Assembly (NCBI GenBank): GCA_964187785.1
Contig: OZ076409.1
Location: 18,416,001 to 18,480,000 of the forward strand
Reading direction: 5' to 3'
Source: Amphiscolops sp. MND2022
Taxonomy: Eukaryota
Length of the DNA stretch: 64,000 nucleotides
Part shown: positions 7 through 36,129 of the stretch, piece after piece
Position numbering within the stretch: the first letter of the stretch is position 1
Layout: each line of letters opens with the position of its first letter
Notes under the pieces: model-generated
The model's database searches: none
What the model saw: only the letters and a program-made list of their open reading frames with translations
What the model was told of the DNA's origin: nothing
Program-made: the position numbers and the translations under genes

Positions 7-758
7 GGGTACAAGACATATTGCTTAATTCCATATTGCTTAATGCCATATTGCTTAAATTTGTGGACATATTGCTTAATAATTTTTAGGCAATATGGAT
101 AATGCCATATTGCTTAATTTTGTGGACATATTGCTTAATAATTTTTAAGCAATATGGATGTGTTTTCACATTGAGTAATGAGTGATGAATCGAGCAATGC
201 GTCGGATCTAAGTGACACTTATAACACGTGCCTCGGGTATGTCCCCATTTCCTCTAGTGGCCCGCGGCCCCTTGGGGCCGCTTATATTCCCATCTTGCTA
301 AGCGAGGTCGAACAGGAGCAAAGACCTAGCGGGAACGGAGATCGCGAAGCGACCGTAGTGGGAGCTGGTCTTTGCGACGGTGAGGGCGAGCGTGCATACA
401 TCGCATATGCCCCACATTATATTTTCGCTTTCAGAACACATATTAGATCATAAAGGCGTTAGACCTAAGTATTTTAGATAAAATTAGATCTGAAAGTTAG
501 ACCTACCGTTGAATCTAATTCCATACGACACATATCATACTCAGAACACATCTTAGATCATAAGACCTATTAGATCATATTAGACCTAAGGTCCATATTG
601 TACTGTACTAGGTCCATATTGCTTAAAATGATGTCCATATTGCTTAAAATGATGTCCATATTGCTTAAAATGATGTCCATATTGCTTTAAAAATTTTAAA
701 CAATTCGTACATGGTCGATTTTTAAGCAATATGGCATTAAGCAATATGACTTGAAGCC
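7..758. mobile_element. Non-autonomous foldback/MULE-like MITE, type A (ATATTGCTTAA terminal arrays), carrying the shared GC-rich core at ~222-418
   Basis: Left end GGGTACAAGACATATTGCTTAA matches the reverse complement of the right end, GGCTTCAAGTCATATTGCTTAA. Tandem (CC)ATATTGCTTAA motifs occur at both ends. Flank CGGCAT (1-6, cut by the window edge) recurs as TTTCGGCAT (759-767), consistent with a 9-bp TSD. Confidence 0.75.
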
Positions 759-836
759 TTTCGGCATGTTTTTTTGCCGAAACGTCCGCCGCCATGTTTT
801 TGCCGAAACGTCTTTTGCCGAAACGTCCGGAATCCC
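759..836. mobile_element. Right end of a type C MITE (GCCGAAACGTC arrays), host of the type A insertion
   Basis: Three GCCGAAACGTC motifs ending ...CCGGAATCCC. This is the reverse complement of the GGGTTCCGGACGTTTCGGC terminus of the element at 13875-14444. Confidence 0.7.
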
Positions 837-873
837 TTGGCGAAGGGAGCAAACCGACCGAGTCATACAACAA

Positions 874-1115
874 GGTAAATGGTCACTTGGCTTAATGCCA
901 TTTGGCTTGAAGTCATTTGGCTTAATACAATTGGTCACTTGGCTGAATTTTTTTAAGCTAAGTGTCTCGGGTATTGGTCACTTGGCGCAAAGTCATTTGA
1001 CTTAAAACCACTTAGTTGAAAACACGTGGCAGATTTTGTCGAATTTATCTTTATTACGTAGTCAGCGTATTATTATAACATGTCATATCAAGTACCCCTC
1101 GGATATGTCCCCATT
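874..1115 (+). mobile_element. Left arm of a type D MITE (CA(C/T)TTGGCTTAA arrays), truncated inside the shared core
   Basis: Starts GGTAAATGGTCACTTGGCTTAA, has repeated CATTTGGCTT/CACTTGGC motifs, and ends in CCTCGGATATGTCCCCATT, the first part of the shared core. Confidence 0.55.
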
Positions 1116-1325
1116 GGTTGTGATAAACTTGTTGTGATAAACTTGTTGAATAGTTTCAGACTTTTGATTGAATTGATTGATCTTCATCACATCACTGGAA
1201 GCGTTGTGCAGGACCGATCAAGGCTTTCGGGGGATCTGTGGCTCTTCTGTTGGCTTTTCTCACCAATTGGGTGGACCTATCTAGACAATTCTGTTAGTTT
1301 GTTCCAATTTCCTTATGTGATTCCT

Positions 1326-1949
1326 ATGGTTTATATAGTTGGAGCTAGCTCATTACACGTAACAGTAGAATCAACTACTTACAAATTCAGAAAAACTATT
1401 CGGAACTTCATTACCGCAATACCAGGTCTCAGTTTCTGTCACAACTCGAGACTGAAAAATTTGCAGCATCTTCTATCTCAAGGAAAACTGAAATATCAAC
1501 ATAACCTGCTCCTCTGGCACGACCTGATAAATAATACTTTATCCCCACATTCAAGCAACAATCATAAACCCTGGACCCCTCAGCAACTAGTTACGGCATT
1601 AAAACAGCAAAGTCATCGAATAACTGCAGTCATTTACTGCAGAAGATTTGGGACTGCAGATATCTTTAACCAATTACTGGCTACTGATATGCTTATAATC
1701 CGGGCTGATAAACACCTTCTATCTAACAGAAAGAGGAACAATCATTGGATTAAAACGCAACTTGCAGAAGTGCATCTCTGGGTCCGCATTGAACTGAACT
1801 TGCTACACACGGTTTTACAGCGGAGCAAAAAGCTGCAGTCAATAGTTATTCAAAACCGCTCCAGAACCAGAAAACGTAAATCCAAGAACAGATCCACTTC
1901 CGCGAGAAGGAGGAACAAAAAAGCGAAACAGGAATCTCTAACTGGGTAG
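1326..1949 (+). CDS. SGNH/GDSL-hydrolase-like protein with a basic C-terminal tail (probably element-encoded)
   Basis: From ATG 1326: VYIVGASSL (block I-like), AIPGLS (block II-like), LLWHDLINN (block III-like), EVHL (block V-like), then RSRTRKRKSKNRSTSARRRNKK. Intronless and embedded among transposons. The motifs are divergent, so the fold call is tentative. Confidence 0.5.
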   Translation: MVYIVGASSLHVTVESTTYKFRKTIRNFITAIPGLSFCHNSRLKNLQHLLSQGKLKYQHNLLLWHDLINNTLSPHSSNNHKPWTPQQLVTALKQQSHRITAVIYCRRFGTADIFNQLLATDMLIIRADKHLLSNRKRNNHWIKTQLAEVHLWVRIELNLLHTVLQRSKKLQSIVIQNRSRTRKRKSKNRSTSARRRNKKAKQESLTG

Positions 1950-3137
1950 CTATTTGAGCCTTTGTTGGTTTGGAGCGGCCCGGGGCGAGTAACCTGCTTG
2001 CTTTGAATCAAAAATGACTGGCACACGCAGTAGAAATCAATCCACCTCGGACGAAAAATGTCCGCAGTGCAAAAGTAAGGTAGCTGAAAAAGAAAAGAAC
2101 TCAATTCTTTGCAACGGTTGTTTTGAATGGTGGCACGGGACATGTGGAGGAATAGAAGTGAAAGATTTGGCAATATTGGCGAAGTACTCGGCTGTGCACT
2201 GGTACTGTCCCAAATGTGAAAACGACACTTTGCAAAAACAAGGTATGACCATCATGAAGTCCTTAAAAACGTTAAATCAATGGTATAATAATAAAAGTGA
2301 AATTCGCAAACAGGAAACTGATCTATTGATGTCAATTAAAACTGATATCGAAATCATCAAGGAAAAAACCCCCTCAGGAAACACCTATGCAGAGAAATCG
2401 CCCGAAAACCTTCGCCCTCTACGAGACAACAAACACCTCGAAACAAAGAGAAAGACTTGAGTACCATATTGATTGTCAGTGGCAATCAAAAGTATCGAGA
2501 TAGCATTGAAATTAAAAGGGCATTTTCAAAAATTTTTCCTATGAAAAAATTGATTGTAGCATTCAATACTGCTCGGGGAAACATTCACTTAAAATTCTTG
2601 AACTCTCAAGAGCCTGACGAGGTGTTCTCCAACTGGAAAGCTGATTATCTTGGAACGAAAACCAGTATACGAAAAGCTAGCGCTAGAGATGAGCAGAGAA
2701 ACGCTGTCATAAAAGGTGTTCCGAAAGAGATAGAAGAGGTTCATATTACTGAAATTCTCCAGAAGAAGTATCCTGGGATCTATGTGAAAAGATTCGTAAA
2801 AGCGGATGGAACAATTCTGCAGACAGTGAAACTGACCTTCCAGTCAGAGCTTCAATACAACAATGCACTATCTGAGGGACTCTTTTTGGATTCCGTTTAC
2901 TACCAGCCATATGCATTTGTTCAGAGAGGCATAAGATTCATTCGATGTTACAACTGCCAAAAATTCAGTCACCTTAGCGGAAACTGCCACTCCAAAACAG
3001 CCTGAATAAAAACTGTCCGAATAAATAATTAGAAAGCAAATGTATGAATTGCAAAGGGACTCACGATGCGGATTCACTTGTGTGCCCAACTTACATTAAA
3101 CAAAAACAAGTGGTTTATGACGCTCGAGGGCTAACTG

Positions 3138-5303
3138 ATGAAAATCATGATGGATGGCATGATGGCTCCTGAAAGGAGAATATCATTCTTACAGATCAAC
3201 ATTTGCGGCTTGAGTAATCACAGTAAAATTGCAATTGATGCATATCTTGAAAAACATAAACCAGATGTGGTTTTCTTGAATGAAACGAAACAACAAATTC
3301 CTGATAATGCCTTTACCAATTATACAACTCTCAGTAGTACTCCAAAGAAATCGACAGGCGGGGTTTCGTTGTTGTTTCGTAACGATGTGGCGTATGCTCA
3401 AATAGAGGAATTAGAGACCAAAAACAATGACTATATTGTGGCTGCAGCTAATGTCCGCGGCCTAAAATTACTAACTACGACTGCTTATGTAAAACCTGAT
3501 GACAAAGGTGAACTACTAGAACTCATAAAAAGACTTGAAGCCTGTAAAGTCTACGCAGATACAAATCACATGGAAGGTGTCCTTTTCTTCGGCGACTGCA
3601 ACGCCAGACACTTATACTGGGGTGATCAGAAGTGCAATGCACTTGGAAATGAGTTAATCAGCCACGTACCAACTTATACTATTTTGAACGATGGCCAACC
3701 TACTTTCCTCTCAATCAACGGTCAAAGTGTAATAGATCTTTGCATTTGCTATGGAAACTTCATTAACCAATACAAATGCTCGGTTACAACTGATGAAGAT
3801 ACAGAACTATTCACTGGAGCACCCTCCAGGGGCCACCTGCCTGTGCTAGTTTCTCTTGTCGAGTCGAAAAGTGGTTATTTCAAGGAGAAGCCGTGGATTG
3901 AGAAAGCAATGTGGGATGACTGGCGCGCACATCTAGAAACTGAAATGCTCGACTGGACAACTTCAGATAATGCTCTGGAAATGTGGGAGTTTTTCAAGAA
4001 CTCTTTAAGGGAGATCACACTACTTTTCATTCCTTTCAAAAAAGTTACCCAACATAGTAAACCATTTTGGTGCACCGAGTTAACTATAGCCAGTAAAGAG
4101 CTCAAGCAGCTGCGTCGGAACTTCCGATACAAGTCCAATTATGCAAATTTAGAAAAACTAGCAGAAGCGAAAGAATTATTCAAACGACTACTCAGTGAAA
4201 AGGCGTCTGCCTGGATGAAAGACTACTTGAAGACACTGGGACACAAACGAGGCAAAGAATTTTGGGTATCGTACAATAAACTGTTCGCTGGAAGCAGTTC
4301 CCAAGTGGATCTCATCAAGAATAAACACGGGAAACTGCTGCTCTCAAAAAAAGATATTGCTCAAGAATTCCAAGAGACCTTCTTCGAAGGAAAACATCTG
4401 GAAACTCTCAACTTCGACGAGTCAATGTCAAGGACAGTCTCAGGTTATCTGGACTCGTTTGATGATGCTTCCGAGCATGTTTCGGAAGTTTTTCATGAAC
4501 CTTTCACAATGGAAGAACTAAACGAAGCAATGAAACAATCTTCTGATACAAACTCCTTTGACCCTGACGGGTTCCACGTCAAAATGATCAAAAACTTGGG
4601 AATCAATGCGAAAACTCTTCTGTTGGAGATTTTTAATACATGTTGGGAACATGCTGTATGGCCCTGGTCTTTATCACGAATTGTGTTTATCAGGAAGCCT
4701 AACAAAGATAGATATGACGAGTGTTCCAGCTATCGACCGCTATCAATCTCTAGTCATTTTGGAAAGCTCTTTGAGCGTATGCTGTGCAATAGAATAAATT
4801 ATTTCACGGGAACCGAGAACATTCTGGCGGACGAACAAGAAGGTTTCAGAAGTAAAAGAAACACAGTCAGATCTCTGTACAGGCTACATCTTAATCTGGA
4901 AAATTCTAAATTAATGAAAACACCGACCGCTCTACTCAACATTGACCACGAAAAGGCCTTTGACAGCGTGTGGATAGATGGCCTACTTTACAAACTCAAA
5001 CATTACAAAATAAACGGTAAAATGATCTGCATTTTACGAACCTTTTTGAAGAACCGAGAAGCATTCATTGAGTTATCTGACTTCCGTTCATCTATGTCCA
5101 AAATAGACATTGGTGTCCCTCAGGGCAGTGTCTTGTCACCACTTTTGTTTGTAATTTTCTTGAACGATTTTCTGAGTGAGGAACCGTGTCACTACAAGTT
5201 CGCCGACGACAGTGCTATTTTGATTCAAGGCTGCAATGAAAATGATATCTCCCAGAAACTCGAACACTCTTGCAGGGGGTTCGAACAGTGGTGCCGCAAA
5301 TGA
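3138..5303 (+). pseudogene. LINE ORF2 endonuclease/reverse transcriptase, main open segment (continues 5307-5769, 6857-7243 and 7601-7745)
   Basis: APE and RT motifs as above. Removing the MITE at 5770-6847 restores EVKFVIKAKRANDLVSNTH, which aligns with IEIKLLIKSVNKDDLVTATH of the second LINE. Confidence 0.9.
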
Positions 5304-5769
5304 AGAATGGGAGTGAATGGCTCCAAGACAGAATTGATTGTTTTCAATGTGGAAAGAAACAACATAACTGCGCCGAGCCTGAACAATGAAGCGTGCACTA
5401 TCACAAAAGCTACAAAATCTCTCGGTCTCCTGATTGATGATAACCTGTGTTACAAAGACCACGCCGAAAAAATCTGTAACAAAGCTAAACGCAGCTGGGA
5501 TAACGCTTCTAGAATTTTGAGATGCAAATGGAGCTTGTCAATTCCAACGTTAATTTTCCTCTACACTACTATCATTGTACCGCAGCTCTTATATGCATCA
5601 GTAATATGGTTTGAAAGAAATAGAAGCTCAGTCATGAGAGTCCAGAATCATATCATCAAATCAATCTTTCGACATAGTTTTACTCCTACTATTAGCATCT
5701 GCGAAACGCTGCTAGGACTACCCCCTCTGGACATTTACAATGATGCCATAGAAGTCAAATTTGTCATCA

Positions 5770-6847
5770 TAGGGGCGGGAATAACGTCTAAGGAATAACG
5801 TCTAAAGGAATAACGTCTAAATTTTACTCATTTTTCAGGAATAACGTCTAAAGATTTAGACGTTTTTCCCGTTTTTTTAGATGTTATTCCCGATTTTGAA
5901 ATATTGTTCCTCGTGCTGAAAAATTCCTTCCCTTGCTCTAGTTTTCAGGAATGAACTATGAAATAATCGAAGGCCACGGAATACGAGCAAAAGTCTATGT
6001 GTCTGATGGGTATTTGTTCCTAAATCGAAAAAAACGTCCAAAATATCAAAAAACTATGCAAATACGTCCGAAAAAAGGAATAACGTAAAAAATCCAGAAA
6101 AACGCCCAAAATATCCGAAAGTCATCGAAATACGACTGAGAAGCGGGAAAAACAAATTGAATTGGAAAAAAATAAATTGTTTAAAATCTCAAACTAAAAA
6201 GTGATATAAAATATAAAACGTGCCTCGGATATGTCCCCATTCCTTCTAGTGCCCCGCGGCTCCTTGGGGCCGCTTATGTTCCCATCTTGCTAAGCGAGGT
6301 CGAACAGGAGCAAAGACCTAGCGGGAACGGAGATCGCGAAGCGATCGTAGTGGGAGCTGGTCTTTGCGACGGTGAGGGAGAGCGTGCATACACCGCATAT
6401 GCCCCACATTTTGATATTTTCGCTTTCAGAAAGCCTTTTTCGAAACAGGAATAACGTCTGAAACTTCAGACGCTAGTCTCAAAAAATGATTTATTTTAGA
6501 CGTTATTCCCGTTTTGTATTTAGATGTTGTTCCTCAGACGTTCTTCCCGCTGCCACGTATTTTGATGATTTTTTGACGTTTTAGACGTTTTTGCCAATTT
6601 TAGACGTTATTCCCGTTTTTCAGACGTATTTTGATCGTTTTTTGACATTTTAAACGTATGTCAGTTTTAGACGTTATTCCTCTTTTTAGACGTTATTCCT
6701 CTTTTTAGACGTTATTCCACTTTTTAGACGTTATTCCCGTTTTTTTAAACGTTATTCCCGTTCATTTCAGATTTACATGTTATTCCTTTAGACGTTATTC
6801 CCGGTGGACTTTTAGACGTTATTCCTTAGACGTTATTCCTGTTCCCC
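5770..6847. mobile_element. Foldback/MULE-like MITE, type B (GGAATAACGTCTAA arrays), with the shared core at ~6217-6410
   Basis: TSD TTGTCATCA at 5761-5769 and 6848-6856. Termini GGGGCGGGAATAACGTCTAA and (rc) GGGGAACAGGAATAACGTCTAA. Many tandem TTAGACGTTATTCC copies at 6500-6840. Confidence 0.85.
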
Positions 6848-7243
6848 TTGTCATCAAAGCCAAAAGAGCCAATGACTTGGTGAGTAATACCCACTCTCTT
6901 TACATCTCCAACCGAAGTAAAGCTGCAGCATTAGAAAGTAAGTTAAGTAAATTCAAAAAGTTCCTTGATGACGATACTCGGACAGAATACAACAAGCACG
7001 AAATAGATGAATTCATAGAAGAAAGTTGGATAAAGAGATGGAAGAACACCCAAAACAAAGGCCTCTTGCAATATCTCCCTAACACGCAACCACAGTTAAA
7101 CTCCTGTTGTCCTTTAACTATTGGAGATCCTTATGTTGTCAATAAAATTTGCGAATTAGTAATGGGAATTCCTTTGCTTTTGGCGAATATGCCTGGAACA
7201 TGTGGAAGTGATGAATCGCCAATGTGCATATGTGGAAAGTCAG

Positions 7244-7591
7244 GGGTGGGCGGAAGTAGGTCGAAGGAACGGGATCGAAAATCAGAGTTAGTCCTCAGGT
7301 CGACATACCAAATTTTTGAATGGGATCGAAACAACTCGGATCGAAATTTTTATTACGTAATCAGATATGTTCACTTACCCCTAGTGCCCTGAAAGCAGGA
7401 GCGAAGCGAAGCGGAGCGACGTGCCATATGGCCATGCCTCAATGTTGCTACTTGGCGAAGGGAGCGAAGCGACCGAGCCATACAACAAATACGATTAAAT
7501 TCGACCGCATTCCATTCGATCCTGCAATTCGATCAAAACGATCGACCTCTGTCCTTTCGACCAGAAAAATTCGACCTACTTACAGCCACCC
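7244..7591 (+). mobile_element. MULE-like MITE, type E (~350 bp, TCGA-rich arms, GCGAAGC-rich core)
   Basis: 9-bp TSD GAAAGTCAG at 7235-7243 and 7592-7600. TIRs GGGTGGGCGGAAGTAGGTCGAA and (rc) GGGTGGCTGTAAGTAGGTCGAA. Near-identical copy at 11613-11962. Confidence 0.9.
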
Positions 7592-7775
7592 GAAAGTCAG
7601 AAGACAATCTCTATATCACTATTTCTTCTGCTGTCCGCACTATAACGAGATACGCCCAGACATACAGAGCCTAAATTTAATGGAAGCGACTGGTTGTCAG
7701 AAACTCCGAGATTTCATAATGAATACAAATAAACTGAACTTATAGACTATTGACCTATCATTAACATCCTCCCGC

Positions 7776-7975
7776 NNNNNNNNNNNNNNNNNNNNNNNNN
7801 NNNNNNNNNNNNNNNNNNNNNNNNNNNNNNNNNNNNNNNNNNNNNNNNNNNNNNNNNNNNNNNNNNNNNNNNNNNNNNNNNNNNNNNNNNNNNNNNNNNN
7901 NNNNNNNNNNNNNNNNNNNNNNNNNNNNNNNNNNNNNNNNNNNNNNNNNNNNNNNNNNNNNNNNNNNNNNNNNNN
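7776..7975. other. Assembly gap (200 N)
   Basis: Run of N. Confidence 1.
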
Positions 7976-10930
7976 GATAAGTGTCCGAATCGACGAGAGC
8001 GCTGATGGTAGGACAGTTTCCCAGTCAGTTAGTGGGAGGTTTGTGGAGTGTAGCAGGCACTGAACTGCTTTCCACACAATTCCGTTGTAGCGCTCGTTTT
8101 GGCCATTGCCCTGAGGGTGGTGAGGCGTAGTTTTGGAGGTCGCAACTCCATTTTGGCGGCAGAAGTTTTGGAATTCCGATGAGACGAACTGTGTGCCCCG
8201 GTCAGAGTGAATGAACCCAGGTGTTCCGAAGATAGCGAAAAGTGTTGAAAGACACTTGATGACGCTACTAGACGTGATGTTCCGGAGAGGGAAGGCGAAG
8301 GGAAACCTACTAAACTCATCCACCACTGTGAGAAGGTATTGGTTTTTGTTTCTAAACATTGGTTTGGGGCCAACAATGTCGATTGATAGTCGCTCCCAAG
8401 GTTTGGAGGATCGAATAAGATCGCTGCCGGGGGGTCGCAAAAAGCGTGGTTTCCATAGAGCCTACGTTTTGCAGTTTTCGGTAACCCTTTTTGCCTCATC
8501 TAAAGATATTGGGACTTTGTGTCTTTGAATGTATTCGTACAGTCGGGTCTCTCCTGGATGCGCAAGTGTCTCGTGTAGGGTTTTACAGCTGGGCTGTAGG
8601 GACGCTAATTGAGACAGGGCGTCAGCTGACAAGTTCTGACAACCTCTCTGGTAGCTTATCTCAAAGTTGTATTCCGAAAGTTCCAGGCGCCAGCGAATCA
8701 GCTCGTCATTCTTTACTCTGGAAGAGTTGGGTCCAAATATGAAAGAGAGGGCCATTTGATCGGTGCGAACTAGAACCCGTGACGTCCGTAACAGGTCTGA
8801 GAAACGGCGGAAGCCATCCAAGATAGCCATAGCTTCCCGTTCAACCACCGAGTACGCCATTTCGCTATGTTTAAGAGTTCTCGAGAAGAAACCGACAGGT
8901 TTGTCGTTTTGAGTGAGTGTCGCTCCGATTCCGTTTCCGAATGCATCGGTTTGGAGAACGAGAGGCTCGTTTGCCCGGGGCAGCCAGAGTACGGCAGAGG
9001 TAACTTCTTTCTTGAGAGTTGCTGTAGCCAGCCGAGAAGCTTGATTGAGCGGAAAGGCCAGTTGTTTCTGTGCTGCGAGCAGGGGAGCAACCTTATTAGA
9101 GTAGTCTGCAATCCACTTTGCGTTGTACGCAAAGAACCTAAAAGGCGTTTCAACTGTGACGAGTTTTCGGAGATAGGGAAATCCATCAGTGTCTTGATTC
9201 GGCTCGGATCGGGGCGTTTAGACTCAGCTCCCTCGTTGTGACCGAGCATTGGTACTGTCTTACAGCCAAAAACGCACTTAGCTTTGTTCAGTGTCAGACC
9301 CTCAATCTCGGCCGCTTTCAGGAAGTTCTTCAGATTTTCTTGGTGTTCCTCCTCGGATCTGCCTCCGATGATCACATCGTCAAGATATGGGTGCCGTTCG
9401 CTTCAGGTTGTGCCGGCGTACAAAGGCTGTCATTTCTCGTTGAAATGCGGCTACAGCGTTCGACGCCGAAGGGAAGTCTTGTGAACTCAAAAAGTCGTCC
9501 GTTCACTTCAAACGCGGTGAATGACATGTCCTTGCGATGGAGGGGGATTTGATGATACGCAGACTTCAAATCGATTTTCGAAAATATAGTGTTCTCGGCT
9601 GCTTGGTCAAGCAGATCTTGCATATTTGGAAAGAGGAAGGCGTCCTTGGACGTATGACGATTAATTTTCTGAGAATAGTCGATCACCATCCATGGCTTGG
9701 GTCCGTCCCTAACGACAAAGGCTTGAGCCCGCCAGCAGGGAGACGTGGAAACTTGGATTATGCCTTCAGCGAGCATTCGGTTAACTTCTCACTCCATGAA
9801 GGCGACGTCTTGCGGTTTGTGACCACGCGATTTTGTAGCAATCGGTTTGGCACTATAAACTGTTTTGGAAAGTATGGTCGGAGGGGCAATTTTCATCGCC
9901 GGGAACTCCAATTCCTTGAGCCAGGCAGATATAACCGTCTCTGGTCGATCACCGCCTAATTCCAGTCTCACAGAGTGATGTTGTCGGAGAACGTCAAGCC
10001 CGAGATTAACTACCGCTACGAGGTGTTTTGCGACAGTGAAGAGAACTTGGTAGGTCTTTTGGTTTACCTCAATTTTAACTTTAGCGGTGCCTGGCGTAAT
10101 CAGAGAGTCGCTATTTGCCAAGGCAGTGACCTTGCGCTTCGCGCGGACATTCACGCCATATTCGGCAGCTGTTGAGGCGCTGATAAAGGAGCCCGTGGAC
10201 CCGGTATCAATCATTGCTTGAACTTGTTCATTGCTTCCGGCAAGTTTGAGGCTGACATTCAGAGTGGCAGGGGATATGCCAGTACCGCACAAAACAGCGG
10301 CAGTCTCGGGTTCATCATCAGATGACTGTTGTAAGACAGCAGCGGTCGATCTACATACCGAAGCCCAGTGTCCTGCTTTCGAGCATTTGTGACAGGTGTC
10401 CTTTTCGGCTGGGCACTTTGAGCGTGGATACTGTTTCAGACCGCAGAACTGACAGCGTGGACGAGGCTTGTTCGAAACCTGTTGGGCAGCGGAGTTGTTG
10501 GGCCAATCAGGTTGCCGTCGAGTTGTCTGGGAGAACGGCTTGGTCGCTGCTACAGTTGAAGATTCGGCACTTCTGAAAGATTTGAAAAAATCACTGGATT
10601 GTTCGATAGCAGAAGCAAGCGATATGCAGCTATCAATGTCGGCCTTGGAGTCTTCCAGTTCCAATAGTCTTGCCCGAATGTCGTCAGACCTGAGCCCTGA
10701 TATTAAAGCGTCTCGTACTAGATAGTCTTTTGTGCTTGGACGGTCAAGCTGGTGCATTCGCAGTCTTCAACCAGACGTTTCAGCCTTCCTGAAAATTGTA
10801 CGATAGATTCGTCGTCCTTTTGACTGGCACTGAGCCTTTGATGACGGGCAAAGAGCACTCTCGTGGGCTTCAGAAACTGTCTGTCCAATGTTCTCAGGGC
10901 GTCAGAAGAGGGAATACAGCGCATAGACAA
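7976..10930 (-). mobile_element. Ty3/Gypsy LTR retrotransposon internal region (gag-PR-RT-RH-IN), frameshifted and 5'-truncated
   Basis: Gag knuckle CHKCSKAGHWASVC; protease IDTGS; RT KIDLKSAYHQI, LPFG, PYLDDV; RNase H YSVVEREAMAI...RTDQ; integrase HETLAHPG..CKT, DIVGP, SDRGTQF, GQNER. Domain order RT-RH-IN is Gypsy-type. Confidence 0.9.
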
Positions 10931-10932
10931 AT

Positions 10933-11058
10933 GCTACGAGGAACTTAAGAAAGTACCGTTGTAGCAGAATCAGGCGGTAGCTACGAGGAACTTAAGGAAG
11001 TACCGTAGTAGCGGAATGGTCGATAGCTACGAGGAACTTAAAGAAGTACCGTAGTAGC
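10933..11058. repeat. Three 33-bp hairpin-forming direct repeats separated by 14- and 13-nt non-identical spacers
   Basis: GCTACGAGGAACTTAARRAAGTACCGTWGTAGC at 10933-10965, 10980-11012 and 11026-11058. Spacers are AGAATCAGGCGGTA and GGAATGGTCGATA. Confidence 0.9.
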
Positions 11059-12027
11059 TCAAATAGGAAAGTCGCATACCTGAAGACAGGTTCAGCCTAC
11101 GTGACTTAGCGCGGGCAGGCGCAATGACCTCGAGGGCACTCGTATGTTCGGGGGTGACCTTGTTTGTCTGGGGGCAGAAGGCTTTCCGAAGTACTCGATT
11201 CTTCAAGATGGAGCGAATTCCACTAATGGCCCTAGGCTCTAGGTGGATGTCGTCTCGGGTAGTGTGTTTTTCGACGCTGTAGATGCTTCGAGATATGCCT
11301 CTGTAAGGCCAACGGTGATCGTTGTTGTCTTCTAGGAGTCGATTGAAGACCTTGGCCTGGTCAGGAATGTCTAGCCGAGGAGGAACCGCAATAACGAAGA
11401 CTCTGAGTGCAACTTCAGATGCTGCTACGGCAAGGTCAGAGATGTTCCTGGCAATAGTTCGAGTGTTGTCGGTTGGTAAGTCGTTGCCTCCGATGAAGAG
11501 TACAATCAGATCAAACCGACCTTTCGCAGGTAAGAAAAGTCTCACGTCTCCAACTCGGGCCCCTGGTAGGACGAGAATATTGAAGTTAGGGAACGTCAGG
11601 TTCCTTCCTTGTGGGTGGCTGTAAATAGGTCGTATTTTTCTGGTCGAAAGGACAGAGGTCGAACCTTTTGATCGAATTGCAGGGATCGAATGGAAAGCGG
11701 TCGAATTTTATCGTAATTGTTGTATGGCTCGGTCGCTTCGCTCCCTTCGCCAAGTAGCAACATTGAGGCATGGCCATATGGCACGTCGCTCCGCTTCGCT
11801 TCGCTCCTGCATTCAGGGCACTAGGGGTATGTGAACATATCAGACTACGTTATAAAAATTTCGATCCGAGTTGTTTCGATCCCATTCAAAAAATTTGGTA
11901 TGTCGACATGGGGACTAACTCTGATTTTTGGTCCCGTTCCTTCGACTTACTTCCGCCCACCCCTTCCTTGTGAATCAGTAATAATCAGGTTACGAGTGGG
12001 CGAGGTCTTGAAGAGGTGATAACGCAT
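11027..12027 (-). pseudogene. SGNH/GDSL esterase ORF split by a type E MITE
   Basis: Excising 11613-11962 plus one TSD copy gives an in-frame MRYHLFKTSPTRNLIITDSQGRNLTFPNFNILVLPGARVGDVRLFLPAKGRFDLIVLFIGGND...RDDIHL. All four SGNH blocks are present (TDS, PGA, GGND, DDIH). Confidence 0.8.
11613..11962 (-). mobile_element. MULE-like MITE, type E (second full copy)
   Basis: 9-bp TSD CTTCCTTGT at 11604-11612 and 11963-11971. Reverse-complement match to 7244-7591. Confidence 0.9.
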
Positions 12028-12033
12028 GAGGAG

Positions 12034-12188
12034 TATCGAATAGAATTGGCGTGGGGGAAAACAATACTTGCAGGAAGTTTCTATTCGATGTATACTTCAG
12101 ATGAAAGCTTATCGAATAGAAACTTCCTGCAAGTAGTGTTTTCCCCCACGACACTTCTATTCGATAAGCAATCATCTGAAGTATACAT
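12034..12188. repeat. Nested, overlapping inverted repeats (two alternative long hairpins)
   Basis: 12034-12089 matches the reverse complement of 12111-12166 at 53/56 positions. 12088-12121 matches the reverse complement of 12155-12188 at 32/34 positions. Confidence 0.9.
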
Positions 12189-12297
12189 ACAACAATTAGG
12201 TTAACATAAATAACACAACGACATTATATAACAGTATTAATAACTAACTACATATATATAACTGCATCAACGTGGATACGTAATCAACTAGAGCAGC

Positions 12298-14902
12298 TTG
12301 GGCACAAAAAAGGTAGAGAATTCTGGAAATGTCATAAGAGACTATTCAAAGATAAGTTTGAGAATATTGGCATTGTCAGTAACAAAAATGGCGAGCTTTT
12401 GTGCGATCCAATGTCCATTTCACAAGAATTTCGCAACACTTTTTTCGAAGGCAGGCATCTTGAAGGAAACGATTTCCATGACTGGCAACCAACTGTTGAT
12501 TACACTATACCTGAGTTATGTCATGAACTTGACCGTGATTTTAGTATGGTCGAACTAAATGAAGCCTTGAAAAATTGCAGATCTTCTTCATTTGACAATG
12601 ACATGATTCATGTTACCATGTTGAAAAAACTGGGAGCCAACATGAAAAATTTATTGCTCTTCATGTTCAACACACGTTGGATCACATCCACATGGCCTTG
12701 GAACATATCTAGGATCACTCTTATAAAAAAGCCGGGAAAGAAATCCTACAAACAATGCTCCAGCTATAGACCATTATCTATTTCTAGCCATGTTGGAAAG
12801 TTATTTGAGAGAATGATTTCTGCTAGACTGAAGCTTTACTTCGAAACTCACAATATCCTTGATGAAGAACAAGAAGGTTTCAGTACTCATCGGAGCACTA
12901 CCCGTTCTTTGTATCGTATGCATCTCGTATAAGAGGAAGCAAAGCGTTCGAAAAAGCCGACTGCACTACTGAATATTAATCTGGAAAAGGCCTTTGATAG
13001 TATTTGGGTCCAAGGACTGCTTTATAAACTTGAATCGGTGAATTTGCCCCACAGGCTGCTTTGTATCATATCATCCTTTCTTAGCAATCGGAAGGGATTC
13101 ATTGATATCAATGGCCATTACACTGAACTTTTCGATATTAATGTTGGTCTCCCCCAAGGCAGTGTGCTTTCCCCTCTTCTTTTTATTTTTTACCTCAGTG
13201 ACTTCTTATCCGAAGTCGAGGTAAAGTTCAAATTTGCAGATGACAGCTCGGCTATCATCTCTGCTTTTAACACAGATACCTTACATTCAGCTCTACAAGC
13301 TATTTGTCATAATATAGAGTTTTGGTGCAAAAAGTGGAGAATGGTAGTTAATGGGTTTAAAACTGAGCTACTTCTTTTGAATTGCTTCGCTGACAACACT
13401 CAGCCAATCCTTCTCAACGGGGAGCGATGCAAGACGAAGCAAACTACTAAATCTCTGGGCTTAACTATAGACACTAACCTCACCTATAGAGAGCACACGT
13501 CTATTACGGCCTCGAAAGCTTTAACTAGCTGGAGGCTGCTTAAGAGTAAATGCTCTAACAGGTGGGGCCTCAGTATACCAACACGAGCCTATTTGTATAA
13601 AACCATAATCAGACCACAGTTAATATATGCGGAGCCGATATGGGCCCAAAGAAACTATGCAGGCCTACAGGTTGTACAAAATCGAATCATTCGCTCCATA
13701 ATGAAACACAGCATGTCTCCAAAGATAACAGCTATTGAAGTGTTGATGGGGATTCCTCCTTTAGACATTTATTGTTCTTCAATTGAAATAAAACTTTTGA
13801 TCAAATCAGTGAATAAAGATGATTTAGTTACCGCGACGCATGTCAAAACATTGACTAGACCCAGTAGTCTCTCCGGGTTCCGGACGTTTCGGCACAAGAC
13901 GTTTCGGCAACAAGATGGCGGAAGACGTTTCGGCAACTTTTTGTTGCCGAAACGTCTTTGGTGCCGAAACGTCTTCACAGCAGGTGAAAGACGTTTCGGC
14001 AACATTTTGTGACTTTTTTTGACTTCTTAAGAATAAATTTTTACTTTTCGTGAATGTCTCGCAAAATTTTCAGTACTTTCCCCTTCTAATGTGGGGGCAT
14101 ATTCGGTGTATTCACGCTCGCCCTCACCGTCGCAAAGACCAGCTCCCACTACGATCGCTTCGCGATCTCCGTTTCCGCTAGGTCTTTGCTCCTGTTCGAC
14201 CTCGCTTAGCAAGATGGGAATATAAGCGGCCCCAAGGGGCCGCGGGGCACTAGAGGAAATGGGGACATATATGGGGCACGTTTCATACTAAAGAAAACTA
14301 CAGATTATTCTTCTTGTTGCCGAAACGTCTTTGGTGCCGAAACGTCTTCACAGCAGGTGAAAGACGTTTCGGCAACATTTTGTTGCCGAAACGTCTTCCG
14401 CCATCTTGTTGCCGAAACGTCTTGTGCCGAAACGTCTTGTTCCCGTCTCTCCTCCCTTCTCCTAAGCAAACTGAGAAGATTTGAAAGAACTCATATGTCT
14501 CATTCTTACACTCGAGACTCCATCAATGCCTTCATCAGGGATAATTGGAACCGCAGATGGAACAGTCCGTATAATGACAATTTCCTCAGGAATTTCATTT
14601 CCAACTTGCCACAAGAAACGATTCATTCACCTTTACTGGACGGAAACCCTTTGATTGCCAATATGATAAGCGATCTTCTCATCGGAAGCTCACGAAGATT
14701 AGCTGAAAATTTATGGAAACTGAGCTGCACACCATCGCCCATGTGTCTTTGTGGAACGTCAGAGCAGAACAGCTACCACTATTTCTTCTATTGTCCAAAT
14801 TATTGTAATTTCAGACCCTTTCATCTCAATTCTCTTGATTTTTTCCTCTCTGATGACTGTGCCATTATTAGAAATTTCATCTCCGGTACAAATATTTTTT
14901 AA
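12298..14902 (+). mobile_element. 5'-truncated LINE ORF2 (RT + C-terminal CCHC), related to the LINE at 2014-7745; interrupted by a type C MITE
   Basis: Begins LGHKKGREFW (cf. LGHKRGKEFW). Motifs YRPLSISSHVGKLFER, GLPQGSVLSP, FADD and CLCG...YHYFFYC. Nonsense TAA at 12930-12932. Confidence 0.9.
13875..14444. mobile_element. Foldback/MULE-like MITE, type C (GACGTTTCGGCA arrays), with the shared core inverted at ~14088-14283
   Basis: 8-bp TSD GTCTCTCC at 13867-13874 and 14445-14452. Termini GGGTTCCGGACGTTTCGGC and (rc) GGGAACAAGACGTTTCGGC. Removal restores TRPSSLSSLLLSKLRRFERT. Confidence 0.85.
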
Positions 14903-14913
14903 TGAACTGAAAC

Positions 14914-15149
14914 GGGTGGCTATGAATAGGTCGAATTTTTTTGGTTGAAAGGACTGAGGTCGAACCTTTTGATCGAATTACAGGGATCGAATGGAATGCG
15001 GTCGAATTTTATCGTATTTGTTGTATGGCTCGGTCGCTTCGCTCCCTTCGCCAAGAAGCAACATTGAGGCATGGCCATATGGCACGTCGCTTCGCTTCGC
15101 TCCTGCATTCAGGGCACTAGGGGTATGTGAACATATCTGACTACGTTAT
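14914..15149 (-). mobile_element. Truncated type E MITE
   Basis: Matches 11613-~11850 from the GGGTGGCT terminus through the GCGAAGC core. The other arm is missing. Confidence 0.8.
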
Positions 15150-15578: not shown

Positions 15579-18500
15579 ATGTTTCACAATGCTCAGCGAC
15601 CTAAAGACGGAGAATACACAAAGACAATATACGACCTGATCAAAGATCAACGTTATGCAGAGGTTGTAAAGATTTTGTCGGCGGAGTTGAATCAAAATTG
15701 CAGATCTCGCGCAGCATTATCTATTTTGGGATATTGCACCTATCAGATGCAGCACTACGAAGAAGCTGCTGTGTATTATCAGCGTTTGGTTGACCTGTGC
15801 CCTAACAATGAGCATTATGTGATGTATTTGGCCCAATCGCAGTATAAGTCATGCCAATATCAGGAGGCTATGAATAGTGGTGCGTAATTTTTGCTGCAAT
15901 AAATATTCAGTGTCGGTTTCATTGAGCTGACTCGACCTCCGAATATCTAACTGATTTTCGACAATCAAAACTAGTCAGTTGTTTAAATTGATATTCCGAG
16001 GTTTTAAATGAAGTTCCTGGAGAAAAGTTTCACCTCAGGTTATAGTTGTGTATAATGCGATGGGTTCATACGGAGAACCCGTTCAATTTTCCATAACCCT
16101 TCTGTAAGTTAACTGGGGCGTAGGAGCAAAAAAAATGTGATCAATTAGAGGTAACCAAATTTACCATGACTGAAAAAATTACATTGCTATTCCATTCAAT
16201 GACGAAATTTGAAAGCTCAGTTCTAAGGTGATTTACAATGCCTTAACGTTTACAGCTGTTCAATTGGATGATGCTAATTCTGAGTTTGCGGACAGCGTAA
16301 AGAAACTGCAGGCTGCTATCAAGTATGGCGAGGGAGAGATTCAAGCGGCCAAAAGTCTCGTGGATCAAAGCTCAAGCGGAGATGCTGATAAGCATGTCAA
16401 TTATGGCTGCATACTTTACAAGGTAGTGTTTTGTTTTATTACGTGTCTACATATCTTAATCTTCGATTTTTGCCGAGTTCTTGTTCCAAGTTCACTGAAG
16501 TTACAAGTAGGGAGTCTCGTTCAACATACAGTACAACTCATACAGTAAAATTCGCTTGTATCTAACCCTCATTGGCTTTAAAAATTGGCATCATCCAGTT
16601 AATTCTGATTTATCCTCTTACTGTTTTCTTCGGTCCCTTGTGGCATGTTATGGAGGCAGATCCCGTCTTACCTCGGATATAACGCCAAAAACTTGGATAG
16701 TATTGAAAAAATTATTGGTGGATATACAGTCGAACTCGGATAAAAGAAACATTCGGACATAAGAAACGTTTTTACACCTCCGCTTTTATGCAAGACAAAC
16801 TTTCCGCGTTAATAAGGCAACTGATAAAAGAAACTATGGATAAAAGAAACTCTTTTCTTACCGCCCTATGTGTTTCTTTTATCAGAGTTGGACTGTATAT
16901 TGAGAAAGCAGAGTTTCAGACGAAAATGAGAATTTTGACAGTCTCATAGTGCCGAAAAATCTAAAAGGGCTTTTTGGATCTTTGGGCTTTTTAAACATTG
17001 GAAAATTTTTGAAAAAAAGTCTCACAGAGCCGAAAAATGGAAAGGGGACTTTAGTCTCGTCCGGTGTTGTATGTTACGTTAAAATAGAATGAACGAATGA
17101 CCCTTTGCGCTAACTTCGATGCGTTTCTGCTGGCCGGTCCAGTAGTTTAGTAGTTTCTGTAAAAGTGTCCACTACGCATACATTCTGGTATCTGACGAAT
17201 TAAGCTTGCCACTGTAACAGCCGCGATCATTTTCTACTAAAATACCGCGACTAAAAAGACCTTTGCGAACCAGGGTGAACTTTGGCTCTGCTGCACTGCG
17301 AACATGGTTTAATTTCTTTGAATTACAGGAGGGTAAATACGAAGAAGCACTGAAACACTTCTTGGACGCTCACAACATTCAAGGTTTCAAGCCCGATCTT
17401 AGCTACAACATTGCCCTCTGTTACTACAAGAAGACAGATTATGCCCAATCGTTGAGGTATTTGTCTGAGATCATTGAACGAGGAATCAAAGATCACCCTG
17501 AGCTGAGTGTGGGAATGGCCACTGAAGGATTGGAAATTCGAAGTGTCGGCAATACCTTGGCTCTTCAGGTGAGACATGAACAATATGTATGGCCCTAATA
17601 TGGTCGTTGACCCTGATTCATTTTTTTAGTCTTATATTTTCCAGCGTTTTTATAGTGTTCTGATTGAAAGAAGCAATAGGCTTAAGGCTCAAAAGCCGAA
17701 TCTGATGAAAAGTAAATTACGTGTGACGACGGCTGGTATTTTTGAACTTCGTGTGTAATTCATACAATTTCATCGAATGATCAGTAAAATGCATATACGA
17801 ATAAAATCCTGTTTCGTTTTTACATTTTTTTTTCAATTTCATGATTCTTAGCAAGAAAATCTGCATTATAAGGATCAATTTGTTCATGAGCTGCTTTGAG
17901 ATGAAGACTTTTTCTGCATTGTCCGCTGTTTCGATCGGGAATAATTATGATGCTATTCTTTCAGGAAACTGCTCTGGTTGAAGGCTTCAACCTGAAAGCA
18001 GCTATAGAATTTAGACTGCGCAACAACGAGGGGGCAGTCGAGGCCTTGACCGATATGCCGCCCAGGTCAGAAGAGGAGCTTGACCCTGTGACCTTGCACA
18101 ACCAGGCGCTGATTAACTTCGAGAGCGAGCCCACTGCCGGTTTCGAGAAGTTCCAGTTTCTCATACAGCAGTCTGACTTTCCCCCAGAAACCTTCGCCAA
18201 TCTACTCATTATGTATGTCAAGTATGATTACCTTGACTTGGCCGCTGATCTGCTGGCCGAGAATAATGATATCCTGACCCAGAAGGTAAATTGGCAAAGT
18301 AGTTTTTTTGAGCTTTGTCTTCGCTGAGCATTTTTGGCGATTGCTGTGCAGCGTCGAATTATGTAGGATCCAAAATGAAGCAAAATCATGTAGGATTGAA
18401 TCGTGACTTGATTTTGTCTAAGATCGAAAGTTTAAATTTCAAATATTACACCATACCTTTAGTGCCCTAAATGCAGAAGCGAAGCGAGGTGCCACTACTT

Positions 18501-21500
18501 GTTCAGCGGAAGGAGAAAGGCCGAGTCGTAAAACCAATTTTTGTTTCTAAATATATAATGAAGTTATCCTTTTCGGTCCTGTATAATTCGATTCTAAATA
18601 ATTAGACTCTGGAGAGTCAACTCCATTTTTCTTACAGCTTTGTCATCGCTAAACTATGACTTATATACGCTTAATAATTGTATTTTCAACCAACAAACTC
18701 AGTCCGAGAAGAATCAAGGGCGGTGAAACCTGCTATACGTAGTGATTATTGATGCGCTTTGTAATGAATTACTAAGAGTGTATAGTTATTGATTTGTTGT
18801 TTTCCGCCCACATATAATGGGGGAGGAAAATCATAATCCTTGTTGCGTTTTTTTTTGCACATGACGAAGTCAATGTGCATTGCAGTCCAGCTAAGTAAGT
18901 TTTTTTTCCACTATAGTCAACTTCATAATGAGCGCCTTTTAGAAAAAAGCCAAAACCCCAGAGAGATTCGAACCTGCAGCCTCCCGATTGTACGGCATAA
19001 GTGTTGACCACTGTGCCATAGGGACGTTATTGAACAAAGTTGAACTGTTGAATATATACGCATGCGATTAAAATAATATATATACGCATATTAAAATAAT
19101 CGATGTCTTCGTCATGTGTTGCGAAGCACCGCTTCGCCTCTGTGTACAAATTCTGCCAAAACTCCACTTTATTACTCCATTTAGTAACACGGCATAATTT
19201 GGTAACACGCATTTACGGTAAACCCTCGATTATCCGCCACCTTTGGTCAACCGCCTCAAATCTACCGGGACATTTTGCTATAACACCCGTGTCTAAGCTC
19301 CCTTGATTAACCGCCACTCTCACTTATCCGCCATAATTCGCGCTGGACCGATGGTGGCGGATAATCGAGGGTTTACTGTACTCCATTTAGTAACTCCATC
19401 TAGTCACCATGGCGGAGTTGGTAGTGCGTCTGCCTGGCAGACACGGGGTCGTGGGTTCGAACCCGTGATGATGCGTTACATTTTTAGCAGAAAATATCCC
19501 GGTGCTAGCGGGCGTCTTGTTATTATTGAACATTGAAGTTAATGGTTATCGTAGCCAAAAGGAGAAATGTCACTGTGCCCCGAAGGGGCCTATTTTCACA
19601 TCAGCGGCAACAATAAAATGCCCAATCATGCTATATTCTTTTTTGGTTGAAGTTACTCTTTCAAAAACTAAATCGAGTTATTGCTTACTCTCAGACCATA
19701 CCTTTCAGTGAACAAGAATTTGAAAGAAAAACAGTTTAGTTAGTAGCAAAAATAGCGATGTCAAAACCATGTGCAATATCAATTTCACTTTTTTTGATTT
19801 TATTCATAGAATAGTGGTGGTTTGTCTATAAAGCACGAGAAGTTTGTTTCCAGGATAACCCATATCTGACTCAGTGGATGCTCGATTTCTTCGAAGCTGT
19901 CTTAATGGCGGAAACATCGGCGGAAGATGCTTATGCCAAGTTTGACGACATGAATGCCCGAATAACTGATGATTTGCGCAAGATCACCAAACTTGTGCAA
20001 GATTATCGTCAGAACCGCGAGGACGAAAAAGGTTAGACACTTTTTTAACGTTTGTGAAAAGTCCTCATTATGATATTCAGTTTTTTCAACACCTTGTTGA
20101 CACTGTGTTAATTTCCATAATGATGCTTTTTAGTTTTGGGCATCATGATGCCAAATCTAGCCGCTAGTATAGTCTTTTACTCTGTTCAGTTTCTTTTCCT
20201 TTCTAATATGATTCATGAGCATTTATATTATGTTGTAAATAAGATCAACCTGGATCGCTTTTCACGAGACCAAATTAATCATTTAATATCTATAGTATCT
20301 CGGTTTTTACTTGCAAGTAAAATCTTTGCAAAAAGTCTGAAAACCCCCAAGAGCTAGAGCCCACTCAACTCAACGATGACTTAGTCAAATTCTAGATTGG
20401 AGTTCATAAATAACTGAAGCAAAGAGACGGAGCAATCAATATTTATACATTTGAATTTGCACCACACCAAGGTTAAAATCCCTCCCAGATAAGGCTTACT
20501 TCCTCTACAACATGAAAATGCTTCTAGTCGTGCAACAGTATAGATGCGTAGATGCGGACGATGAAAATGAGAAAAATCTATCATGGTATACATTCAGAAC
20601 CATTGACACTAGTTTGAATAGCACCTTGTGTTGGTCTAAACCTGGGTAGTTTGACCAATTGGATTCTGGCTGGCTGCGAAGCAGCTGAAAATGTCAAAAA
20701 GTGAATAATGTCAATTCAAGACCACTCAGTGCAGTATTTCGATGATTTCGCCGTTCTACCCCTTCTACTTTAGACTGAAGCTATCTAGAGGTCATAGACC
20801 GATTAATTACTCATACAGTTTAACGCATGGATAGAATTTTTTAAACATGCTGTTCCATGGATGATATAATCCCTGTAAAATCATTACAGCATCTTTGTAG
20901 TTTCTGCCTCTATCTAATCGATCAAAAATGAGGTATTTTTGAAAAAGTTCCAGCTTGTCGCAATGAACAAAATTTATTTGGGCGGAAGTATCGGTGACAT
21001 TGAAACAGAATAATAAATGCTTGTTGGCTGATTCTTGAAGCAAATTCGCTCGGACGAAACTTCATTTTGAAAGAATTAAATACCAACAGACTCAGTACAA
21101 AATCACAACTAATATATTCAAGTTACTAAATTTGAAGACATAAATGACTACTACCATGATCAAACTAATATATAAACTAATATTGTAACCTTCACACTAT
21201 CGGTCAGAAAGCACGCATTAGTACCTTCAAGAACTTTCTGTAGACAAATATCTACAGTTCTCTCTGAGTTCTTTGAAGATTGAGCTCGTAGATTGCACCA
21301 TTCTTTGCACCCGTATAAGTTTTCGATGAGTCATTTCGAGTTTGATTTGCTGTCGACCCAAAAGGTTGTCGATTTCCTTCCAGAAGAACCATCACTCCCA
21401 AAGAAGGGGTCAGAATAGGAAAAAGAGAAGCTGGGAGAGCCGAAACCTTTTGCATTATATGGGGTTTCATATTGGAATATTCCACCTGAAGAGTAGTCGA

Positions 21501-31600: not shown

Positions 31601-31936
31601 GATGCTTGCAACCTCTGCATGATATCACAGACAAGCGTGAAAACGCTAAAGTTTTTTAGTCAGTAATATCGTGTCTCAATTTCGAGGGAAATGAAGAGAA
31701 AACGTACTGATAGAAAAACGGAAAATGCTTTTTAATTCCAGAATAGGATGAGTTTAAACTCATAATTCTTTGGCTCGCCTACGAACTTCGAGGCACAAGT
31801 CATTTGAGAAATTTATTTTAATTTTTCAATATTAATTTGGCTACGAAATGTACGAAATCAGCTGCAGGGCATCGTTTTTAACGAATTCGTTATGAAGGTT
31901 CTATAGAAATACCGTGAAATTTGAATTTAACCGACA

Positions 31937-32080
31937 ATAAAACAAGGCAATAATTAAATCAGTCACTTAATGATAAGGTCTCGGGGAAGGTCGTCGGTTT
32001 AAAATTCCGAATTTTCTACCGATGACCTTCCCCGAGATCTTATCATTGAAGTGACTGATTAATATTTTGCCTCAATTTAT
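31937..32080. repeat. ~145-bp imperfect palindrome (hairpin MITE-like)
   Basis: ATCAGTCACTT-AATGATAAG-GTCTCGGGGAAGGTC-GTCGGT pairs with ACCGA-TGACCTTCCCCGAGA-TCTTATCATT-GAAGTGACTGAT. Confidence 0.75.
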
Positions 32081-35176: not shown

Positions 35177-35344
35177 CAGTGGATTCCGCTTAATTCGTAC
35201 CGCTAGGGACCGAATAAATTAGTACGAATAAAGAGAAATTAACCGTATTTTATGACTTTGGTCGCCGCGAAACGGGGGTCTCAGATGCATACGAATTAAA
35301 CGAAGATCCGAATTATCCGGATACGAATTAACCGAAGTTGACTG
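35177..35344. mobile_element. Tc1/mariner-type MITE (degenerate)
   Basis: TA-flanked CAGTGGATTCCGCTTAATTCGTA ... TACGAATTAACCGAAGTTGACTG. Confidence 0.6.
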
Positions 35345-36129
35345 TATATGAACGTATAACAATGTATAATTTCACAAGTATAACAATGAATCTTAGTGCG
35401 AAAGAAAACAAATGCTGCAAATTTCGAATCATTCTATCTCGAAATGCCATAGGCCGTGATTCGCGAGTGGCTTTTTAAAAAAATATGAGTGTTAGAATAA
35501 GGAGATTTTTTCAAAATCATTAAATTTCGAATGGTGGTTGGGGGAGTCTCATTTTTTGGAAAATAAACGTTCACTGTCATTTTCTCGACAACTATTTTTA
35601 AAAAGTTGGATTGCCCACATTTCAATAACACTAATGCCCTTATTGCAGTAGCGAAGCCAAGCAAAGTGCATGCCACTTTTTGTTCAGCGTTTTTGACGAA
35701 GTCCGACCAGTAGGGGCACAAAGCGAAGGAAGAACAAGTCATGCAGGTAATTTTTTTCTAGAAACGTTTTTGAATAATGTTAGATGGAGTTGGATTGACT
35801 GGTGCACCCATGGATGTGAAATATTGTATTAAGGTATTTTTAATTATATTTATTTGTTACTGGCTAACAATTAAATATATTAAAAACATTGTCTGGTATT
35901 AGGTGAGGAAAAAATATTTTGTTCGGACAAAGATTTCGTTTGTTTGTACACTTCTTGGGTTGTTTTGTAAACTTCGATGATTTTATCAAACTTCCTGAAA
36001 TAATTTTTTACTCGACTGGTAACTATAGACTATAGGTTTAACTTCCTTATAGGTTTGAAAGTGAAAAAAATGGTCGTTTTCCGTACATTCCAGAGAGTTT
36101 TTTGCAGATGTTGTTTTATATTTCTCACA

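Follow-up and report, generated by a model that had tools for sequence, protein, structure and literature searches.

A GC-rich core common to differently armed foldback MITEs in the genome of an acoel

Families of miniature inverted-repeat transposable elements, or MITEs, usually have their ends in common with their transposase, and not much besides. Here we describe a GC-rich internal core of 193 bp that recurs in MITEs with different arms in the acoel Amphiscolops sp. MND2022. The window analyzed is a stretch of 64,000 nucleotides (GenBank assembly GCA_964187785.1, contig OZ076409.1, positions 18,416,001 to 18,480,000 of the forward strand), and all coordinates below are positions within it. 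The hosts of the core are non-autonomous, foldback-type MITEs of the Mutator-like elements (MULEs), and their junctions with the core are staggered and host-specific. On balance we favor a reading in which foldback MULE MITE families pass the core among themselves as a passenger, amplify it through their arms and gain from it a benefit in cis to their transposition.

The core and its host MITEs

The core, here called alpha, has three window copies in three differently armed MITEs (hosts A, B and C), and its start is present in a fourth, host D:

226..418, + strand: alpha core in host A (pairwise alignment, BLAST)
6218..6410, + strand: alpha core in host B (pairwise alignment, BLAST)
14088..14281, - strand: alpha core in host C (pairwise alignment, BLAST)
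1097..1115, + strand: alpha core start in host D, cut off (19/19 match)
419..436 (in B, 6414-6431), + strand: 18-bp right flank common to A and B (0/300 shuffles; absent in C)

An earlier reading of the letters by a model (the original prediction) had placed the core at 222-418, 6217-6410 and, inverted, 14088-14283, and we find it within 4 bp of these positions; the core start that it reported at 1097-1115 matches in full. Compared pairwise, the three copies are identical in 185/194, 183/194 and 182/194 columns (94-95%), with BLAST E values of ~1e-81 to 1e-92. Complete D copies occur elsewhere, with the same left-flank peptide followed by the full core (P0226, P0239, P0310-P0312). Since A and B share 18 more bases to the right of the core, its edges are not sharp, and no target duplication flanks it. 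Short direct repeats had been described as its termini; imperfect ones are present, but not at the ends. The GC content is 59%, versus 31-45% in the rest of the hosts. The heptamer GCGAAGC, a DNA mini-hairpin of exceptional stability, is present 21 times in the window; 14 of the occurrences belong to cores or their relics, all on one and the same core strand.

The hosts of alpha, with the MITE parts adjoining them, are:

7..758, + strand: host A, foldback MITE, CATATTGCTTAA arrays, inserted in a C-type arm (terminal inverted repeats, TIRs, 7-43/722-758)
759..836, + strand: right part of a C-type MITE, adjoining the inside of a beta core (87-90% to C arms)
874..1096, + strand: left arm (CACTTGGCTTAA arrays) and spacer of host D, which is incomplete, being cut off at 1115
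5770..6847, + strand: host B, foldback MITE, GGAATAACGTCTAA arrays, 9-bp target duplication, within a long interspersed element (LINE)
5951..6022, + strand: within host B, transposase stub (FLYWCH-MULE, first coding exon; 19/24 aa identical to P0351)
13875..14444, - strand: host C, foldback MITE, GACGTTTCGGCA arrays, 8-bp target duplication

Positions 1-1115 of the window form a four-deep nest: A lies in a C-type arm, the C-type end adjoins the interior of a beta core (a distant homolog of alpha, described below), and D begins at the end of that core. Target duplications of 8-9 bp are found at the G-started array ends, 9 bp in B, 8 bp in C and 9 bp in each of the beta-bearing hosts E1 and E2. 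That of A is probably 9 bp (759-767), its left side showing only 6-7 bases at the window edge. The hosts range in size from 350 to 1080 bp and have the long TIRs with 9-15 bp subterminal tandem repeats by which foldback MULEs are defined in the description of Muta1 (PMC5225508). Within C, a core-bearing segment of 299 bp lies between two 74-bp direct repeats (13937-14010 and 14310-14383) that are identical at 73/74 positions.

Among hosts A-E, the link to a transposase was examined for B. The protein P0351, to which its stub is similar, has 395 aa, a FLYWCH Pfam match above the cut-off, a MULE match of 25.9 bits, just below Pfam's 27.6 cut-off, and an Atlas score of 0.97. The stub alone gave no Pfam match, and a representative search with it gave 12 matches, two of them long unrelated proteins that were taken as chance. 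With the duplications and the G-started arrays, the stub bears out the MULE/foldback nature that had been proposed for the hosts.

The arms had been called unrelated. This is true of the array units of B, C and E, which are mutually unlike except for a short AGACGTT in B and C (judged by eye), but the arms of A and D are 80% complementary over 30 nt, and the terminal motifs of A and C are alike, their cores being oriented the same way. Likenesses of this kind, and the 18-bp flank of A and B, would be left behind if one ancestral MITE had retained its core while its tandem arms diverged by concerted evolution. Such vertical descent is nevertheless very unlikely: the arm units of B, C and E are dissimilar at a core difference of only ~5%, host B goes back to an autonomous element of its own, and one arm type can hold several core variants (see below).

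Type E MITEs carry beta, a shorter core that is distantly homologous to alpha:

7244..7591, + strand: host E1, arms GGTCGAA/GATCGAA, 9-bp target duplication, beta core 7355-7488
11613..11962, - strand: host E2, 9-bp target duplication, beta core 11717-11850
14913..15149, - strand: E3, a single E arm and beta core (15018-15146), incomplete
837..873, + strand: 3′ fragment of a beta (E-type) core (92% over 38 bp)
18350..18640, + strand: old diverged E-like MITE, beta-type core near 18439-18535 (outer limits approximate)
35612..35745, + strand: old beta-type core relic (no arm motifs detected; limits approximate)

A 5′ block relating type E to alpha had been predicted, and it is indeed common to both, a combined pattern matching four window sites versus none in 100 shuffles. 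Alpha and beta also align collinearly over ~100 further bases, with a score that is reached by 6/2000 shuffles under lenient and by 108/2000 under strict scoring. Five inward-pointing arm motifs surround the core at 18350..18640, where 0/3000 random windows reach three; these arm motifs also led us to give up a reading of the relic near 18452 as a core outside MITEs. In E2 and E3 the beta core is bordered by ATAA; alpha has no consistent terminal repeat. The other flank of E3 resembles the far end of the core itself, as expected of a head-to-tail junction: when this left flank is compared with the far end across ATAA, 0/746 other ATAA sites score as well for the E2 end and 4/746 for the E1/E3 end, the comparison being post hoc. 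The beta core has fewer changes than its right arm (6 in 402 nt versus 14 in 312; p=0.02, with events counted by hand).

Copies beyond the window and the probable movement of the core

One alpha frame is open by chance, so that gene callers have logged copies of the core as open reading frames (ORFs). We take the frame as accidental: it has no Pfam family, its best Atlas score (0.85) is at chance level, and its starts and stops are variable. A search with it matched 952 ORF clusters among 952 candidates. Among the matches listed (the best 120 of the 952 clusters), all are from ENA contigs, and one window ORF is itself present in the collection. The ORF collection may hold more than one assembly, and 952 is therefore an indication of scale rather than a copy number. 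The sequences examined number 224, namely the best 120 of the 952 clusters and 104 further members, one being the window's own. Host D is over-sampled because its start codon adjoins the core.

Right flanks fall into seven recurring classes in 191 of the 224 sequences, the remaining 33 being short or unassigned, in agreement with the proposal that one internal module is common to many arm types. When left flanks are added, about ten host types can be distinguished by eye, five of them with arms known from the window. Of flanks with at least 15 aa, 39/63 match window arms above shuffles. As far as flanks of ORF length show, the core is not a short interspersed element (SINE) or HINE residing mostly outside MITEs, an outcome that would have told against the original prediction.

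Left junctions are staggered, some hosts joining the core ~6-10 bp inside its edge and others sharing 10-19 bp beyond it; on the right, the break comes ahead of the direct repeat in some hosts, and in others up to ~25 further bp are held in common. Which variant of the core is present goes with the host (5/5 tests on 120 sequences, Fisher p 1e-14 to 2e-8), and so the core has been amplified as part of each host. Among C-type right arms (n=21) the core variants are TG in 10, IA in 7, TA in 2, and TE and IE in 1 each; the 10 share their variant with the FSF host (TG) and the 7 with host A (IA). In E-type arms, alpha cores (P0158) are found in addition to beta cores. Together, the staggered junctions, the host-tracking variants and the three variants in C-type arms indicate a core without ends of its own, a cargo passed between families recently and repeatedly, by acquisition or by conversion.

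The original prediction had arms swapped around a fixed core. Our data read better as the core moving between arm families, although some exchange of arms is seen: 4/50 D-left sequences are chimeras with the right flank of another family, and most of them show a matching switch of internal variant, as crossing over within the core would give. In P0350 and P0352, transposase stubs are joined to B-type right arms and the core is absent; deletion could have removed it, so these are no proof that the autonomous element is core-less.

How the core may have moved we infer from what is generally known of DNA transposons, their gap repair and template switching, from the bias of Pack-MULEs toward capturing GC-rich DNA (PMC5861414) and from the frequent nesting. 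On several occasions one MITE family would have supplied a copy to the interior of another, probably through gene conversion or a template switch while a gap, or the loop between the long inverted arms, was being repaired. The nesting of MITEs in each other may help this transfer, and each new combination of arm and core would then be amplified by the transposase of its arms. Spread to so many families would most likely be due to the core raising transposition in cis, as the repeated uptake of one sequence suggests. Rice MITEs offer an analogy, being described as having internal sequence that raises transposition, with which higher GC correlates (PMC9921582).

Several points weigh against this passenger reading. 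The internal sequences of Muta1 derivatives are described as heterogeneous (PMC5225508), so a core is not generally required. The old relic at 35612..35745 is without arms, and a circular intermediate is likewise compatible with the E3 junction and with the 74-bp repeat in C. Flanks were read as chance-ORF peptides, often of <15 residues, in 120 of 952 clusters and the 104 further members; the flank classes were hand-drawn after seeing the data; and 24/63 flanks of at least 15 aa fail the match to window arms, several of these resembling recurring flanks by eye. Copies outside MITEs could be under-sampled.

A bolder form of the reading would make the core a portable selfish module that sweeps unrelated Mutator families, promotes its own transfer and boosts the transposition of whichever arms it comes to lie in, while having no ends of its own; to the MITEs it would be a symbiont or a parasite. 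The transfer would perhaps pass through a single-stranded or circular intermediate, for which the head-to-tail junction of E3 and the 74-bp repeat in C are the basis. We hold this form to be unlikely.

Structure, constraint and other explanations

Several hairpins had been predicted in the core. The GCAAAGACC stem region, a long stem with a GCGAAGC tip, alone stands out, with z of -2.6 and -3.6, but for the core as a whole the gain over shuffles is small (z -0.8 to -1.7); the beta core, in which the long stems are absent, folds no better than shuffles. The further claim that structure is retained was not upheld. In the three window copies 0/58 predicted pairs covary, a result of low power because the families differ at few sites. 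Among 120 sequences, rare changes fall in stems in 79/250 cases versus 32% expected, and stem changes comprise 1 both-sided versus 83 one-sided. Stems without compensatory substitutions had been named beforehand as evidence against the prediction, and this is largely what was found, with no compensatory change at the family level. Structure as a conserved feature is not supported.

Hints of sequence constraint on the core are weak, the smaller number of changes in beta than in its right arm included. Frequent variants lie outside stems in 8/9 cases (p=0.29). A lower density of changes in the mid-core of the three window copies (4/16 in 112/194 columns, p=0.008) was set aside as post hoc and clustered. 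In the same three copies the named stems are not depleted of changes (2/16, p=0.18).

If the MITEs had captured a SINE or a gene for a structured RNA, this would explain why one long stem folds better than shuffles, and could explain the both-sided stem change in 1/120 sequences. The lack of family-level covariation and of stems in beta speaks against it, as do searches of the core, which gave 0 matches in Rfam and 0 tRNAs. A tRNA-derived SINE in particular was rejected, as the A- and B-box-like matches are in the wrong order and there is neither a tail nor an own duplication. We consider capture of an RNA gene or SINE most improbable. DNA pattern scans gave 0 and 0 matches in viral contigs, 0 in metagenomes and 0 in prokaryote genomes; five metagenome loci matching the core pattern did so by pattern only and were taken as chance.

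The core might instead be an independent element that makes no target duplications, Crypton-like with a tyrosine-recombinase partner or else with a rolling-circle partner, which as a second-order parasite targets the AT-rich middle of foldback MITEs and is afterwards multiplied by its hosts. Such an element would leave cores without flanking duplication, and could account for the core segment between 74-bp direct repeats in host C, for the post hoc match of the E3 left flank to the far end of the core across ATAA, and for the one relic without arms. Cryptons are described as having 4-6 bp terminal direct repeats, with animal members that may lack terminal repeats (PMC3212892). On its minus strand alpha has an 18-nt palindrome and a CTAG that starts after 6 nt and ends 10 nt after the palindrome, the spacing of a Helitron 3′ end (a 16-20 nt palindrome ~11 bp from CTRR; Helitron and HINE end definitions as given in PMC4067079).

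A canonical Helitron was nonetheless rejected, since 28 common bases continue beyond CTAG, the next base is A or G, the other end has no TC start and there is no A-T target. A HINE/Helentron was rejected for having no 12-15 bp subterminal inverted repeats and no TT at both ends; inverted matches of at least 7 nt in copy B comprise the internal stem and a short palindrome only. The host-specific junctions moved us away from insertion of a Crypton or HINE as the preferred reading: each end differs from host to host, in several hosts the break falls within what would be the ends, and flanks recur rather than being unique. The 102 window ORFs include no recombinase or Rep-helicase match, the rest of the genome not having been searched for these. 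An independent element is, in our judgment, distinctly unlikely.

The core may also be neutral cargo that became common through one successful family (D or A), its abundance, the nesting and the pick-up of GC-rich DNA by MULEs having made it the usual donor. It is in keeping with this that rare substitutions favor neither stems nor loops (79/250 in stems), that MITE ends abut or interrupt cores (P0242, P0344, P0358 and, in the window, 836/837 and 873/874) and that core-less B derivatives exist. Harder to reconcile with neutrality are the uptake of the same 190 bp by about ten host types, the collinear blocks that alpha and beta have kept despite their divergence, the lower variability of the beta core relative to its arm, and the presence of a core already in the old E-like copy. 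We view neutral cargo as a possible, if doubtful, account. If it is right, there is still clear sequence traffic between transposon families, of a kind that confuses repeat libraries.

Known systems and the setting of the window

Our literature search, made in a collection largely without subscription papers, judged mostly by title and abstract start and with supplements outside its scope, found neither this acoel repeat nor a core common to MULE families described; searches on GCGAAGC in transposons and on CryptonV, judged by title and abstract start, found nothing relevant. The only earlier report found of a core common to several MITE families is that of the CMITEs of the coral Acropora (Wang et al. 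2010, PMC2872659). There, several MITE families with different TIRs have a common internal region that is more conserved than the TIRs, and internal variants track TIR families with one stated exception; in the text available, the origin is left unexplained and a role in transposition is only proposed. The same pattern is seen here: from family to family the internal region is better conserved than the TIRs, and its variants track the families. CMITEs differ in being ~100 bp long and of piggyBac type, with TTAA duplications, related 14-bp TIRs and a 75-bp core (PMC2872659), whereas the acoel hosts are foldback MULEs of 350-1080 bp with largely unlike arrays, a GC-rich core of 193 bp in two distant subtypes, and staggered junctions. 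Membership among CMITEs was rejected on the 8-9 bp duplications and G-started array TIRs, which are not of the TTAA/piggyBac type. The pattern is thus already known from coral CMITEs, where it is still unexplained, and the acoel core works alike but is not a member.

Other systems resemble the acoel MITEs in part. Muta1, a type-2 foldback MULE of Aedes aegypti (PMC5225508), also has duplications of 8-9 bp, long TIRs whose subterminal repeats measure 9-15 bp, and many non-autonomous derivatives, but the internal sequences of Muta derivatives are heterogeneous, and the portion of that paper available reports none common across families. Tm1-HH of Meloidogyne (PMC3169594) is of Mutator/foldback type with 9-bp duplications and ~14-bp repeats, and inside one class lies a conserved segment with a hairpin, for which capture is the presumed origin; as described there, it differs in having a single TIR family and, as cargo, a recognizable histone hairpin. 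Pack-MULEs likewise hold foreign GC-rich DNA between MULE TIRs, although they are described as carrying many gene fragments (PMC5861414), as against one recurring non-coding module here. The internal transposition-promoting regions of Ost35 and mPing illustrate how a MITE could benefit in cis from its own interior, differing in that they are given as belonging to other superfamilies and not as common to families (PMC9921582).

The acoel case extends the coral pattern to another superfamily and another phylum, with ~ten host types and many hundreds of young copies. With core-less controls, a candidate transposase and the related Muta1 active in a yeast assay, the questions of whether MITEs gain mobility from a shared core and of its route between families are directly testable.

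Over its first 15 kb the window consists of nested elements, namely two LINEs, a Gypsy fragment and MITEs. Larger features of the window are:

1993-7745: LINE, ORF1 with PHD-finger, ORF2 endonuclease-reverse transcriptase; stop-broken, with MITEs B and E1 inserted
7980-10770, - strand: Gypsy-type pol fragments, adjoining an assembly gap at 7776-7975
12210-14900: related LINE, split by host C
15594-28698, + strand: IFT70/TTC30 gene with many exons, and old MITEs and a LINE fragment in its introns
50291-56172: Gypsy-type long terminal repeat (LTR) retrotransposon, 251-bp LTRs 96.4% identical
12034-12166, 31936-32081, 16706-16896, 19214-19380, 35174-35345, 38928-38998: other palindromic or TIR MITEs without core match (some limits by eye)
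45356-45821, 62506-62963: repeat with GTGCCGAAAA and GGGGGACCC units, two copies 74% identical
10933-11058: tandem repeat, 46-bp unit, 2.7 copies

The IFT70 exon of the window has 93% identity to a protein of the acoel Convolutriloba macropyga, the next matches being at 69-77%, which makes a convolutid acoel the most likely source of the DNA. In another acoel, Praesagittifera naikaiensis, MULEs are reported as 5.7% of the genome (PMC6451197). The Gypsy element at 50291-56172 apparently lies inside a glutamine synthetase gene (- strand). Long open frames at 1116-1949 and 11030-11707 stand among the retroelements, with no Pfam match in either; the latter is GDSL/SGNH-like, judged by eye. At 18960-19010, 19407-19530 and 39020-39090 are tRNA-like heads with a common 3′ stretch, at which ARAGORN called no tRNA; by eye, these represent a possible tRNA-derived SINE. 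Pieces of the GTGCCGAAAA/GGGGGACCC repeat are also found at 16940-17087 and 22502-22550.

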